Below are positions 38,952 to 58,208 of a stretch of DNA of 64,000 nucleotides, piece after piece. This stretch comes from a virus: positions 3,552 through 67,551 of IMG/VR virus record IMGVR_UViG_3300021090_000016, one strand, 5' to 3'. Numbering within the stretch: position 1 is the first letter of the stretch; every line of letters begins with the position of its first letter. The notes under the pieces were generated by a model. The model ran no database searches. It saw only the letters and a list, made by a program, of their open reading frames with translations, and had not been told where the DNA came from. The position numbers and the translations under genes are program-made.

Positions 38952-39023
38952 GCCGGCTTAGCTTAACGGCAAAGCCGCCCGCTTGTATCGGGAAGATTGG
39001 GGGTTCAAGTCCCTCAGCCGGCT
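38952..39023 (+). tRNA. tRNA-Thr(TGT)
   Basis: Acceptor GCCGGCT/AGCCGGC, anticodon arm CCCG-CTTGTAT-CGGG, T arm GGGGG-TTCAAGT-CCCTC. Confidence 0.8.
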
Positions 39024-39182
39024 CTTGTATTCTCATAACCTGTTGTGCGCGCGGTTGGTACTGACAAGCGGTCCAGAGGGTTAGATTCCCTGAAGCCTGT
39101 TGGCCTGGAGCGCAACTGCTTGTTGGGTGCCTGGCAAACGCCCAATGCCATGCATGGCCAGGACTGATAATCCTGGCCAACT

Positions 39183-39256
39183 GTCGGGGTAGAGGAGTGG
39201 TTGTCTTCGCCTGCCTCATAAGCAGGAGATCGCTGGTTCGAATCCAGCCCCCGGCC
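39183..39256 (+). tRNA. tRNA-Met/Ile2(CAT)
   Basis: Acceptor GTCGGGG/CCCCGGC, CCTGC-CTCATAA-GCAGG, GCTGG-TTCGAAT-CCAGC. Confidence 0.85.
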
Positions 39257-39567
39257 CTATGGCACGAACCGGGATATGCGAGAAGTGTGGCAAGCATGGA
39301 TGCGTGATATTTCACGATCCCCTCGAATACTGCCTGGATTGTTACCTTCTTGCGTGCGGCTTTGAGCCGATCGTTGAACCAGAGCTTCTACCGTCAGACC
39401 TAGATGACGACTATTACAACCCTGGTTCGCGGTCTGATCGCTTTCTCGGCGGAACCCCAAGCCATCGCGTGCGTCTGCATAACCTTCCTGGGCATGAACC
39501 AGAATGTTCTGACATTGCCTATCAGGGAGAGTAACCTCCTGTCGCCTTTACTCGACCCGGGGTGTAA

Positions 39568-40596
39568 ATGACTCCTGCGAAGCTCAATGTCTTTTTCGCT
39601 TTCTTCAGTTACTCCGGCAACGGCGGCTTCTCTTCTTGCCACCCTTCTCTCAGAGGATGGTTCGCCGAAACGCTTCTCAAGTGTAAATCTGACGAGCGCG
39701 TTGGGGAGATTCTGGACAAGGATTTCTCTGATACGCCAATCACTATGACGCGCAATGCCGCTGTGCAGATGGCGAAGAAAGCAAGGGCTGATGTGCTGGT
39801 CATGATTGATTCAGACCAGTACCCAGACCGGGAGTTGGCTGAGGGCGATCCATTGGCCAAGCCGTTCTGGGACACGTCGTTTGACTTCCTCTACAAGAGG
39901 CGCGTCGAAGGCAAGGTCACGGTGATTGCAGCGCCGTACTGTGGCCCGCCTCCGCACAACAACGTCTACGTCTTTCGCTGGGCCAACTGGAACAACTACT
40001 CTCCAGACCAGAACATTCGCATTGAGCAGTACACGCGCGAAGAAGCTGCCCATAGAGCTGGAATTGAAGACGTAGCCGCGTTGCCCACTGGGCTCAGTAT
40101 GTTCGATATGAGAGCCTTCGATCTCATCGACAATCCTTACTTCTACTACGAGTACAAGGGGGATGGCGAGCTGTGCAATCACTGTTGTCAACGCAAGCCT
40201 GGACCGCAGGCAGAGAAGAACAGTACGGAGGATGTGACTGTCACCAGAGACATCTCATTGCACGGTCAGGCCATGCTGGGGTACAGCCCGATCTTTGTGA
40301 ACTGGGACGCCTGGGCTGGTCACTGGAAGCCTCTGTGCGTGGATAAGCCGAAGCCTCTGACCATTGACAACGTTGGCGCGAAGTACAAGCGTGCTTTCGA
40401 GAGCGGAATCCGTGGTAACTCCCGGCTGGTGATCCTTGACCCAGGGGCACAGAAGGCGCACGTCGTCTCGAGGCTAAGGACCGGCGACGAGATTGTGGAG
40501 AAGGAGCCAATAATCCACAGGCTCAACAAGGGTCTGGACGACGAAATGGTTCGGGAGAAAGATTGGCTTCCCAACGGCGCCAAGGTGATGCCATGA
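39568..40596 (+). CDS. GT-A fold (GT2-like) glycosyltransferase
   Basis: 'ITMTRN', DxD 'MIDSD', 'PTGLSMFDMRAF', 'TEDV', 'AGHWK'. Confidence 0.75.
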   Translation: MTPAKLNVFFAFFSYSGNGGFSSCHPSLRGWFAETLLKCKSDERVGEILDKDFSDTPITMTRNAAVQMAKKARADVLVMIDSDQYPDRELAEGDPLAKPFWDTSFDFLYKRRVEGKVTVIAAPYCGPPPHNNVYVFRWANWNNYSPDQNIRIEQYTREEAAHRAGIEDVAALPTGLSMFDMRAFDLIDNPYFYYEYKGDGELCNHCCQRKPGPQAEKNSTEDVTVTRDISLHGQAMLGYSPIFVNWDAWAGHWKPLCVDKPKPLTIDNVGAKYKRAFESGIRGNSRLVILDPGAQKAHVVSRLRTGDEIVEKEPIIHRLNKGLDDEMVREKDWLPNGAKVMP

Positions 40597-40751
40597 ACGA
40601 AGCAGTTCTGGTCCAGGGGCTGATCGACGACGCCATTAACCGTCTTGAGAAGGCGGTCCAGATTGTCTACTGGACTGGGTTTAGCCAGGGCGCGGCGGCT
40701 GCTGCCATCGGACTGATCGTGCTGTTCATGCTTTTCGGGAGGCGGACGTGA
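40593..40751 (+). CDS. Small membrane protein
   Basis: ATGA overlap; C-terminal TM helix. Confidence 0.5.
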   Translation: MNEAVLVQGLIDDAINRLEKAVQIVYWTGFSQGAAAAAIGLIVLFMLFGRRT

Positions 40752-41614
40752 GGCAATTTACGCTGACCATTCTGGTTGTGGCTGCTGCTGGGCTCGTATG
40801 GATGGCATTCTTCCATTCGCCTGCTCCGGCTCCTTCCCCAGCTCCTGCGCCTATCAAGCAGCCCGAGCCAAAGCCAACCCCAAAGCCAGATCCGAAGCCT
40901 AGGAACCCGCTCTGACCGAAGGAAAATGCAGGGGCTGCGGTCGCAGCCAAGGTGCTCGAAACGACGGATGGCGGCCTGATGATTCGTGAGGGCGATAGCT
41001 GGGTGCGTTACGTGCCAAAGGTTGAAGCAAAGGTAGGCGGGGCTGTCAGCCCTGATGGCGCGGAGCAGATCCAGTGTGATTTTCCTGGTCAGTACCACAT
41101 GAGGAACACTGGAGGCATGGGACCGCGTGGACCTGGCAGTGGTGACGGGCTGTGCGTTTTCACCAGCATTGAGCACAGTGCCATTCACCAGAACGTCCCT
41201 GAGCTGATCGGCTTCCAGAAGTGGATGATGAGGAAACCAGGTGGCGGCTACCCCGAGAAGGTGGACGCCATGATCGACCAGTTCTGCAAGGAGCGCGGTC
41301 TGGCAAAGCCCAACTATATCCAGGTGCAAGGGCCTGACCTTGAGGTTATCCGCCTTGCATGCAAAACGGGTCGTATGCCTGCTGTGACCTACGGCGTCAG
41401 CCCGTCTGGTCGCTATGGCGGGCAGAGGATTCTCCACATGGTCAACGCCCCGCACGGCTCGCAGGCTTGGTTTGCTGTGCTGGACAACAACTATATCGAG
41501 CCACGCGAGGGGGCTTATGAGTGGCTCTCGCCGCAGGAGTTCAGCCGTGCTTACGGGAGCGGCTGGAGCGTGATCTTGCTTGCACCGCCACCGCCGCCAG
41601 TGCCAACGAACTGA
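40748..41614 (+). CDS. Signal-anchored papain/C39-like cysteine peptidase containing an in-frame TGA at 40913-40915
   Basis: GTG 40748 encodes a TM helix and Pro-rich linker; the same frame continues after TGA into 'GLCVFTS' (Cys), 'HMVN' (His) and 'LDNN'. Confidence 0.6.
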
Positions 41615-41619
41615 GGTAT

Positions 41620-42564
41620 ATGATGCGACTCTTCCTTTTGTCCGTCTTTCTTGCCATTCCAGTGCAGGCAATTGCCCAGTGTGGACCTGGTGGGTGTTCC
41701 TCGGGCGGCTCGTTTGCCCAGCAAGCAGATTCTCAGTGGAAGCATGATTCCATCGCCTACGATCGTGTCCACTGGTACGAGAATGGTCAACCAGTGAAGA
41801 CCTACTGGTACGACAGTGGCGAGACGACCGTATACACGCCGTTTGTCGTCGGGAAGGCTGCTGTCAAGGATTCTGCTGCCAAGTGCTGCTTTTGCTCACC
41901 CAATTGCACATGCAAGTGCGATTGCAAGTGCAGCACGATAGGGACAAAGTGCAACAGTTGCTGCCCCTGTGCGCCAAAATCCGAAGCGATCCCGCCAGAC
42001 AGAAACTACGGGATCATGCTGGATAAGATGCGCGAAAACTGTGACGAAACCAGGTACAGCATCACGGACTGGCGTGGTCAACACCAAGTCACCAAGGGCC
42101 AAGCCCTGGACGCCGTGAAGAGCAAGCTCAGCGATGACAGTGGGAAGAATCCGGTCGTTATCGTCGGTGGGACTGTTGAGCAGCGGAACACGGTGATTAA
42201 TGACCTCGCCGGCAGTCCTAGCCTGGTGTGGTTCAAGGACAAGGCGCTTGTACAGACCTATCCTGACGCCAGCCACTATCAGCTTGAAGGCTTCAAACTG
42301 CCACAGGACGAGCGCTTTAAGAAGTCTGGGTTTATGATCGCTCTGCTGACTCCTCCGAACAGGGACGGGTTCGGCAAGCTGCTGTACGCCCAGTACGACT
42401 ACGACGGTGGGGCAGAGAAGTTTTCCATCCAGGCTCGCCCAAGGGTTGACCCGAACTTCGATCCGAACAAGAAGGACCCGGTAAGCGGCGGTTTCCCTAA
42501 CATCCCGTGGTGGATCTACCCGTTGGCTGGCGCCGGCATCGCCCTCTTCATCATCAAGAAGTGA
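41620..42564 (+). CDS. Secreted/membrane-anchored protein with Cys-rich segment
   Basis: Signal peptide, 'CCFCSPNCTCKCDCKC...CNSCCPC', C-terminal TM helix followed by KK. Confidence 0.65.
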   Translation: MMRLFLLSVFLAIPVQAIAQCGPGGCSSGGSFAQQADSQWKHDSIAYDRVHWYENGQPVKTYWYDSGETTVYTPFVVGKAAVKDSAAKCCFCSPNCTCKCDCKCSTIGTKCNSCCPCAPKSEAIPPDRNYGIMLDKMRENCDETRYSITDWRGQHQVTKGQALDAVKSKLSDDSGKNPVVIVGGTVEQRNTVINDLAGSPSLVWFKDKALVQTYPDASHYQLEGFKLPQDERFKKSGFMIALLTPPNRDGFGKLLYAQYDYDGGAEKFSIQARPRVDPNFDPNKKDPVSGGFPNIPWWIYPLAGAGIALFIIKK

Positions 42565-57792: not shown

Positions 57793-58208
57793 TGTTCATC
57801 GGCCGCTACCAATTGGGGCAGTCGGTCCCGATCGCCGTCCAGACGGAGGGCGCTCCTGGCAAGCCCGAGCTGTCGGACGACGTGCCGGTTGCCGACCTGT
57901 TCACCGCAGCAGGCGCGCTGGTCCTGAGCAAGCGGCTGCCAATCGTAGATCGCTTTGGGGTAACAGGATGGTTCCTGCTGCCCGTCTTCCTGGATGAGAC
58001 GTTCGAGGAAGGCAACTACTTGGTGAATGTCCACTGGGCCGATGATGGGGACGCCAGGGCAAAGACGTACAGATTTGAGATCGTCCCAGGTGGGGATACG
58101 GACGGTGCTGTTGTAGCCATGCACGCCTACGATCGCCCGCATGGAAAGTTTCTTGTGCAACAACTCGACTCCGGCAGGATCGTTGCCGGACGCAACCCAA
58201 GACTGTGA
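57792..58208 (+). CDS. Virion-region hypothetical protein
   Basis: TAATG overlap. Confidence 0.55.
   Translation: MFIGRYQLGQSVPIAVQTEGAPGKPELSDDVPVADLFTAAGALVLSKRLPIVDRFGVTGWFLLPVFLDETFEEGNYLVNVHWADDGDARAKTYRFEIVPGGDTDGAVVAMHAYDRPHGKFLVQQLDSGRIVAGRNPRL

Follow-up and report, generated by a model that had tools for sequence, protein, structure and literature searches.

A phage peptidase gene divided by an in-frame UGA with a downstream hairpin: the stop codon is probably read through, perhaps as selenocysteine

Results

The divided gene and its TGA

The window, that is, the whole stretch of DNA analysed here, comprises 64 kb of the 67.5-kb IMG/VR virus record IMGVR_UViG_3300021090_000016, a record rated 100% complete. 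At positions 40748-41614 it holds a reading frame that begins with GTG, encodes a membrane anchor and a Pro-rich linker, meets a TGA at 40913-40915 and then continues without a stop, through a peptidase domain, to a second TGA at 41612-41614 (Table 1). An earlier inspection of the letters alone (hereafter, the sequence-only reading) had described this arrangement, with coordinates that were all correct, and had proposed that the UGA and a hairpin following it act as a selenocysteine (Sec) or readthrough switch. As described below, the stop is probably read through, perhaps as Sec, rather than ending the gene.

Table 1 Features at the peptidase locus. Anti-SD, anti-Shine-Dalgarno duplex energy; ORF, open reading frame.
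Feature	Position	Strand	Remarks
Upstream gene for a small membrane protein	40593..40751	+	stop overlaps GTG 40748 as GTGA
Shine-Dalgarno-like GGGAGG	40738..40743	+	serves GTG 40748; anti-SD -10.3 kcal/mol
Codons 1-55: hydrophobic N-terminal helix/anchor, then Pro-rich linker	40748..40912	+	GTG start
In-frame TGA, next nucleotide C	40913..40915	+	relatives have their conserved linker Trp codon here
Remaining linker, in frame	40916..41020	+	holds the 28-codon stretch swapped in frame by a co-occurring strain
17-codon ORF, +1 frame	40926..40979	+	possible reinitiation relay; stop overlaps ATG 40979; anti-SD -5.7 kcal/mol
6-bp hairpin with GGUC tetraloop	40933..40948 (stems 40933-38, 40943-48; loop 40939-42)	+	
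In-frame ATG	40979..40981	+	possible independent start; anti-SD -5.7 kcal/mol
Papain-like Cys-His-Asp peptidase domain with stop codon (TGA 41612-14)	41021..41614	+	
Neighbouring exported-protein gene, Cys form (TGT 41680-82)	41620..42564	+	no RGUY hairpin

The reality of the TGA was examined in assembled contigs, not raw reads, of sequencing runs, and the codon proved to be the same in three of them. Run X1, possibly the source run, gave one contig (depth 35.6) that was identical across 40300-42300. Record 13 of run X4, which belongs to another study, showed 0 differences over 40892-41113, TGA included, and record 18 of run X5 showed 0 differences over 40762-40915, the end of its contig falling exactly at the TGA. 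No contig of run X3 spanned 40865-41066. The TGA allele was present in runs dated 2018 and 2025. With identical contigs in other runs, a sequencing error was rejected.

TGA was the commonest stop in the phage, where it terminated 38 of 64 crude ORFs, including that of the large terminase. It is therefore an ordinary stop codon here, and a reassigned code with TGA as Trp was rejected. A phage-borne suppressor tRNA or tRNA-Sec was likewise rejected, the only tRNAs of the phage being Met, Pro, Thr and Met. The tRNA-Thr gene and one tRNA-Met gene lie at 38952-39257, just ahead of the cassette, and the other tRNA-Met gene and that for tRNA-Pro are located away from it.

Initiation signals were compared by the energy of the anti-SD duplex, for which the background had a mean of -2.9 kcal/mol and a 5th percentile of -7.2 kcal/mol. 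The peptidase part had been thought to have no convincing ribosome-binding site of its own. This was not upheld: the in-frame ATG 40979 has a modest match (-5.7 kcal/mol), like other genes here, and the public gene call P0002 (211 aa) takes this ATG as its start. The small membrane-protein gene upstream of the GTG matched no Pfam or PHROG family.

The peptidase domain

The structure of the peptidase domain was modelled with AlphaFold2 on 58 sequences (pLDDT, the predicted local distance difference test, 95; pTM, the predicted template modelling score, 0.90). Foldseek matched the model with probability 1.0 to the papain-like folds 2bu3, 8z4h and 3erv, the fold matches having E values of 5.7e-5 to 1e-3 and template modelling (TM) scores of 0.43-0.53. 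The matched structures comprise Alr0975, PeiR, C39-like proteins and phage lysin peptidases. At the sequence level, no Pfam or PHROG match was obtained and a profile search of the PDB gave chance hits only, and 427 database relatives were collected at E <= 1e-3. A Cys, a His and an Asp-Asn-Asn motif are invariant in this family and kept in the window protein, whose domain retains all 17 invariant columns. As modelled, the product is a cysteine peptidase of the papain-like fold (clan CA) with Cys-His-Asp residues. We infer a role as an endolysin from position and fold, since the gene sits among small membrane proteins, directly upstream of the terminase genes, and its fold matches include phage lysins.

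Several homologues show variations on this plan. P0106, a homologue of 386 aa, has an insertion of about 170 residues that ends in H-N-C right at the catalytic Cys and looks like an intein. P0110 and locus L004 carry a thioredoxin-like domain (PF13098) with C-x-x-C between the signal anchor and the peptidase domain. In many homologues the Pro-rich linker has a C-P-x(3-4)-C-P pair upstream of its Trp; the window linker has no Cys.

Anchor and peptidase as one ancestral gene

The comparison took in 210 related loci, of which 80 were viral, 80 metagenomic and 20 genomic, and 30 came from a search of one planctomycete order; 176 of them were distinct over the compared stretch. A signal peptide or anchor was found in the same open frame as the domain in 208 loci when a looser threshold was used, and an automatic test for a hydrophobic N-terminus in that frame was positive in 173 of 180. 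All 80 viral loci had the anchor or signal in frame with the domain. The exceptions among the 210 were L127, a metagenome contig whose copy is frameshifted, and L179, whose linker is interrupted by an in-frame TGA, with no in-frame start codon from there to the domain. By this comparison the two halves 5' and 3' of the TGA in the window are one ancestral gene, as had been proposed from the window alone. With a sense codon and an open frame in 208 of 210 loci, the TGA is therefore not a conserved feature of the family.

No DNA relative of the window gene above 63% identity was found in the viral, metagenome and genome collections, and the N-terminal region of the protein, used as a query, retrieved no close fused or short relatives. 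Among the protein relatives, P0003-P0007 have 65-70% identity. The best relative of L179 had 53% identity, over the domain only. Because the window gene has no close DNA relative in these collections, the ancestral codon rests on an alignment anchored at the hairpin; MAFFT alone sets the stop one column off the Trp.

The hairpin and its codon

In the window, 23 nucleotides (nt) separate the UGA from the GGUC loop. The hairpin and the lower pairings proposed by the sequence-only reading were both borne out by the minimum-energy fold. The GGUC loop is the same as in the selenocysteine insertion sequence (SECIS) of Escherichia coli fdhF, the prototype of bacterial SECIS elements within an ORF. 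A perfect 6-bp hairpin within the SECIS distance range follows 5.1% of window positions (3291/63938). Perfect stems of at least 5 bp that carry a GGUC(N) loop are rare: 60 occurred in 2.37 Mb of related DNA, and the hairpin at 40933-40948 is the sole example in the window, both strands considered. In homologues that lack the stop, these stems cluster at two places, namely the linker-domain junction of the peptidase and a site just after the peptidase gene.

Of the 28 loci with the linker Trp in the peptidase, L179 being counted among them, 22 carry a GGUC or AGUU loop on a stem of at least 5 bp, 17-23 nt past that codon. When 289 distinct RGUY hairpins were considered, TGG was found exactly 20 nt upstream in 55, and every other distance from 8 to 32 nt accounted for 1-19 each. 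We defined the element UGG/UGA-N20-RGUY as a codon 15-24 nt upstream of an RGUY tetraloop, with a stem of at least 5 bp and a frame open on both sides; the window, with a gap of 23 and a stem of 6, falls within this definition. By the open-frame criteria there were 65 distinct UGG contexts, in which UGG lies 15-23 nt (mostly 20) upstream of the tetraloop.

The stem covaried. In rows picked for having a hairpin, the covariation score was 0.867 (20 rows) and 0.852 (45 rows). Shuffles scored about 0.19, with 0 of 500 coming up to the real score, and sliding the partner gave no more than 0.2. In 18 of 21 independent proteins the residues flanking the central Val follow the base pairing (Pro-Gly, Ser-Glu/Asp or Ala-Ala). 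Furthermore, synonymous positions of the loop are fixed: all six A-P-V-G-A loci use CCG and GTC, for which the backgrounds are 58% and 51%, and have complementary wobble bases. In L075 and L179 the hairpin is in another reading frame and keeps its distance from the codon. The fixed synonymous positions, the paired residue changes and the out-of-frame hairpins point to selection on the RNA, not on the peptide. The hairpin as a by-product of the peptide A-P-V-G-A was rejected, as A-S-V-D-A, D-S-V-E-S and A-A-V-A-A also keep the pairing. A frameshift site at UGG-GGN was rejected by eye, no consistent slippery pattern being seen. By these alignments, the hairpin is conserved and covarying, and goes with one particular codon. 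It is SECIS-like in geometry, as the sequence-only reading had it, and a real, selected RNA element. That it evolved for the UGA of the window is not the case, as it accompanies UGG in relatives.

In the UGG relatives L010 and L030 the Trp codon lies 23 nt upstream of the loop. The TGA of the window stands at the same distance and is accordingly read as the counterpart of the Trp codon, one transition away. The homologue alignment that had been proposed as a check thus confirmed one expectation and not the other: the hairpin is conserved, and the TGA is replaced by a sense codon in 208 of 210 loci, which is Trp UGG when the alignment is anchored at the hairpin. A Trp at this column had been set out beforehand as a sign of Trp readthrough or a point mutation, and this is where the aligned column pointed. 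Cys at the column, which was to have favoured Sec, was absent from the peptidase; Cys forms were confined to the sister site of the neighbouring gene, as described below.

UGA recurs independently at the hairpin-linked codon in other lineages. Beside the window, L179 has it in the peptidase, and L044, L073, L008 and L077 have it in the neighbouring gene. In the sets examined, six of the six in-frame TGAs that split members of the two families fall at this codon; the neighbouring family was not scanned for stops elsewhere. A model of UGR-GG, a 20-nt spacer and the hairpin, trained on UGG rows only (R2), gave full-length scores of 24.7 bits for L249, a bacterial locus described below, and 23.1 bits for L044. 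A genome-wide scan with R2 was noisy: 9 of 151 genomes had a match at E <= 1, mostly unconvincing, with 150 or 45 candidates per genome scored. Weak matches of the R2 type (E 0.65-4.3) also occurred in other genes, at 622-651 and 817-855 on the minus strand of L008 and at 57814-57858 of the window.

A low-depth strain co-occurring in X1 (record 3) has 40925-41029 (105 nt) swapped in frame for 21 nt. This replacement re-forms a GGUC-loop hairpin with other stem letters, 20 nt past the codon position. The strain has 3 differences within 40885-40924, and its codon at 40913-40915 could not be read.

A sister site in the neighbouring exported gene

The second hairpin cluster corresponds to the start, or the fusion junction, of a neighbouring exported protein that is homologous by blastp to the product of 41620-42564. 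This protein has the motif signal peptide-X-G-P-x-G-C, in which X is Cys, Trp or UGA depending on the phage. When X is UGG, a hairpin was present in 14 of 14 strict contexts, and an RGUY hairpin in 19 of 29 loose contexts. When X is Cys (12 strict and 26 loose contexts, that of the window included), none of the 26 loose contexts had an RGUY hairpin. In each of the four UGA forms, L044, L073, L008 and L077, a hairpin follows at 19-24 nt. Whether the hairpin is present thus depends on the upstream codon, which argues that the function of the hairpin is the decoding of that codon.

In a quick tree of the neighbouring gene, in which several rows came from one ORF and some UGA rows were spurious (L047, L182, L187), the codon types were intermixed, the minimum number of changes required by the starred branches being 5 (W), 5 (C) and 3 (U). 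L044 (UGA) was sister to L049 (UGG), and the Cys form of the window paired with L008 (UGA). The pattern U-x4-C fits L179, L044, L073, L008, L077 and L249. The neighbouring exported gene is a candidate phage selenoprotein family. Reading its G-C motif as a lipobox was rejected by eye, the -3 position being unfit.

About 40 other loci share the neighbouring gene, and some phages have it joined to the peptidase in one frame across the X codon. In AT-rich phages (loci L134, L141, L145, L196, L197 and L200) a second hairpin recurs inside the neighbouring protein, consisting of a stem of 8 bp and a GGUU loop, 16 nt past a Trp codon.

Candidate hosts and their selenocysteine machinery

Planctomycete metagenome-assembled genomes (MAGs) made up 12 of 20 genome matches, and a copy of the peptidase was present in 78 of 267 genomes of one planctomycete order; the host of the phage is probably a planctomycete. 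Of the Sec genes for which candidate hosts were to be checked, SelB and SelD were covered. SelB exceeded its curated threshold in all 10 planctomycete genomes examined, which carry homologues, and SelD scored above the cut-off in 4 of 5, each time with one in-frame TGA, as in a Sec-containing SelD. The TGAs of these SelD genes are followed about 33 nt on by a hairpin with a GUG or GGUCU loop, and a planctomycete gene of the formate dehydrogenase type has a GGUCU loop 18 nt past its UGA.

The best match of R2 in five planctomycete genomes was L249 (G004:C20:9221-9257), in a planctomycete MAG. This small gene has a signal peptide-UGA-G-P-N-G-C arrangement, followed at 20 nt by a hairpin with an AGUU loop, and its product has a membrane helix at the C-terminus. 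L249 is a candidate small exported selenoprotein.

Discussion

We tentatively favour the reading in which 40748-41614 is one gene whose UGA is decoded as Sec by the host SelB through a SECIS-type hairpin, and give it slightly less than an even chance. The gene would encode a membrane-anchored, exported papain-like peptidase of a phage lysis or envelope cassette. The codon, UGG or UGA, and the RGUY hairpin would form a SECIS-type signal bound by the host SelB. At UGA, the hairpin would direct the insertion of Sec and so yield the full-length anchored enzyme, and ribosomes that terminate there would release a membrane peptide of 55 residues. A possible role of the Sec is a selenylsulfide with the catalytic Cys, which could keep the tethered enzyme latent.

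Many observations weigh against this reading. With regard to the family, UGG stands at 26 of the 28 peptidase linker sites and a stop at 2, so that TGA is not conserved, and none of the 28 has Cys at the column. Six Trp-bearing linkers have no RGUY tetraloop hairpin, and the closest protein relatives of the window belong to the 'LPW' subtype, which is the group without it. Copies broken in other ways also exist, one by a TAG at a conserved Trp inside the domain (L178/L215, one MAG) and others by frameshifts (L216 in G147 and L217 in G065, two MAGs, as well as L127). With regard to the hairpin, its folding energy is not above chance (z = -0.33); the 40-nt stretch after the TGA ranks in the top 7.9% by folding energy, and stretches of 50-60 nt in the top 16-21%. 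The covariation rows had been selected for their hairpins, and Rfam gave nothing relevant for the hairpin, with no match up to E = 10. The window is moreover an atypical member, with 23-nt spacing and CCG instead of the usual GGN after the UGA, and R2 aligned only its hairpin part (12.8 bits, E 2.7). R2 also missed L179 and L077, and R1, a model of the phage hairpin, failed to find the real SECIS elements of SelD and formate dehydrogenase. Finally, no partner Cys lies near the UGA of the window, where Sec would have no evident chemistry, and ATG 40979 has a usable ribosome-binding site.

A broader form of the Sec reading takes the hairpin as a working SECIS in all its carriers. UGG followed by a SECIS would then be a fail-safe Sec codon in planctomycete phages and in at least one host gene: Sec would be inserted when SelB and Sec-tRNA are available, Trp otherwise, and truncation would never follow. 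The UGA forms would be the strict version. Taken as a whole, this broader form is somewhat unlikely, though a serious possibility.

The most serious competitor is a tolerated nonsense mutation, TGG to TGA, that split the gene. Translation would then stop at 40913 and that of the peptidase begin at ATG 40979, directly or after reinitiation via the 17-codon ORF, and the enzyme, lacking its anchor, would reach the wall through a holin; the hairpin would serve some other purpose and be present as the companion of a Trp codon. One transition suffices for the change, this ATG is the start in the public gene call, and the anti-SD energy of the ATG (-5.7 kcal/mol) is comparable to that of the terminase gene (-6.5 kcal/mol). 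In addition, the stop of the 17-codon ORF overlaps the ATG, several of the flanking small membrane proteins could be holins, the family has other broken copies, and the window departs from the consensus element. However, in the sets examined all six splitting TGAs fall at the hairpin-linked codon, whereas the remaining breaks are frameshifts or a TAG. In L179 the stretch from the TGA to the domain offers no in-frame start from which such a peptidase could be made, and every intact homologue is exported. Furthermore, the Cys forms would be expected to carry a hairpin of unrelated role as well, and 0 of 26 do. We therefore regard a nonsense mutation as unlikely, although it is a real contender.

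Programmed or leaky readthrough by Trp, in which a near-cognate Trp-tRNA reads UGA-C, perhaps aided by the hairpin, is improbable. It would restore the ancestral Trp and give a minor anchored form beside a major short peptide, and the aligned residue of the relatives is indeed Trp. UGA is described as the leakiest stop, with C at +4 favouring leakage, tRNATrp as its near-cognate reader and downstream structures able to stimulate readthrough, but the evidence for such stimulation is mostly eukaryotic (PMC7026636). Trp readthrough leaves unexplained both the hairpin kept by covariation beside UGG, where no readthrough is needed, and its absence from the Cys forms. Nor is the stop conserved among relatives, as expected of programmed readthrough: it stands at 2 of 28 peptidase linker sites. 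A recently inactivated gene without a functional product, whose intact downstream frame would reflect a young mutation, is very improbable: although visible breaks affect about 2-3% of the family in MAGs, the completeness of the record is rated at 100%, the allele has a depth of 35.6 in X1 and is present in both a 2018 and a 2025 run, no invariant residue is lost, and UGA is found at the same codon elsewhere too.

If the hairpin-directed decoding of this gene as Sec is correct, a bacteriophage gene exploits the Sec machinery of its host. Such genes would be systematically split or mis-started by gene callers, as here, where the call has 211 aa from ATG 40979. Under the broader fail-safe form, the anchoring and perhaps the latency of a lysis peptidase would hinge on the selenium status of the host. 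If instead the ordinary reading holds, the TGA is a tolerated nonsense mutation, and a conserved hairpin beside a Trp codon is still unexplained. A phrase search of one collection of papers found none on phage selenoproteins and gave matches only to 'viral selenoproteins'.

Several known systems resemble parts of this arrangement. The A1 protein of phage Q-beta is made by programmed UGA readthrough by tRNATrp, and there a phage UGA yields a short and an extended product, as it would here. In Q-beta, however, the stop is conserved and reading past it lengthens an already complete protein at the C-terminus, whereas the stop in the window is specific to its lineage and removes an export anchor. 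Lyz of phage P1 is a signal-anchor-release (SAR) endolysin with disulfide caging. Both enzymes have an N-terminal membrane tether on a lysis enzyme, and by analogy a thiol or selenol in the tether of the window protein could cage the catalytic Cys. The primitive phytochelatin synthase Alr0975, the pseudomurein endoisopeptidase PeiR and the peptidase domains of mycobacteriophage Lysin A are alike in fold and in Cys-His-Asp, but the window protein is not a member of their families at the sequence level.

Bacterial SECIS elements that lie within the ORF and are read by SelB have been described (PMC1794560, PMC7026636). According to the account in PMC1794560, they share with the window an in-frame UGA, a GC-rich hairpin within about 20 nt and a conserved G(U) in the apical loop. 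The present element differs in that most relatives have UGG, not UGA or Cys, and yet keep the hairpin, and in that the residue lies in a Pro-rich linker and not at a redox site. Zhang et al. (2006, PMC1794560) also described SECIS-like hairpins that remain after conversion of Sec to Cys. These resemble the present hairpins in lying downstream of a sense codon. In the present case, however, the Cys forms have no hairpin (0/26) and the Trp forms keep it by compensatory changes; therefore it is not a decaying remnant.

The closest parallel is an engineered one. Xu et al. (NAR 2013, PMC3834832) reported that the E. coli machinery places Sec at UGG if a SECIS lies downstream, giving a mixed Trp and Sec product without truncation, and stated that they were unaware of any earlier study describing Sec insertion at UGG. 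Their system was recombinant, with overexpressed selA, selB and selC, whereas ours is known from sequence alone. The arrangement of UGG plus SECIS that they engineered is the one found here in 65 natural contexts. If the fail-safe form is true, these contexts would be natural cases of SECIS-directed decoding at a Trp codon, which is so far known only in engineered E. coli (PMC3834832).

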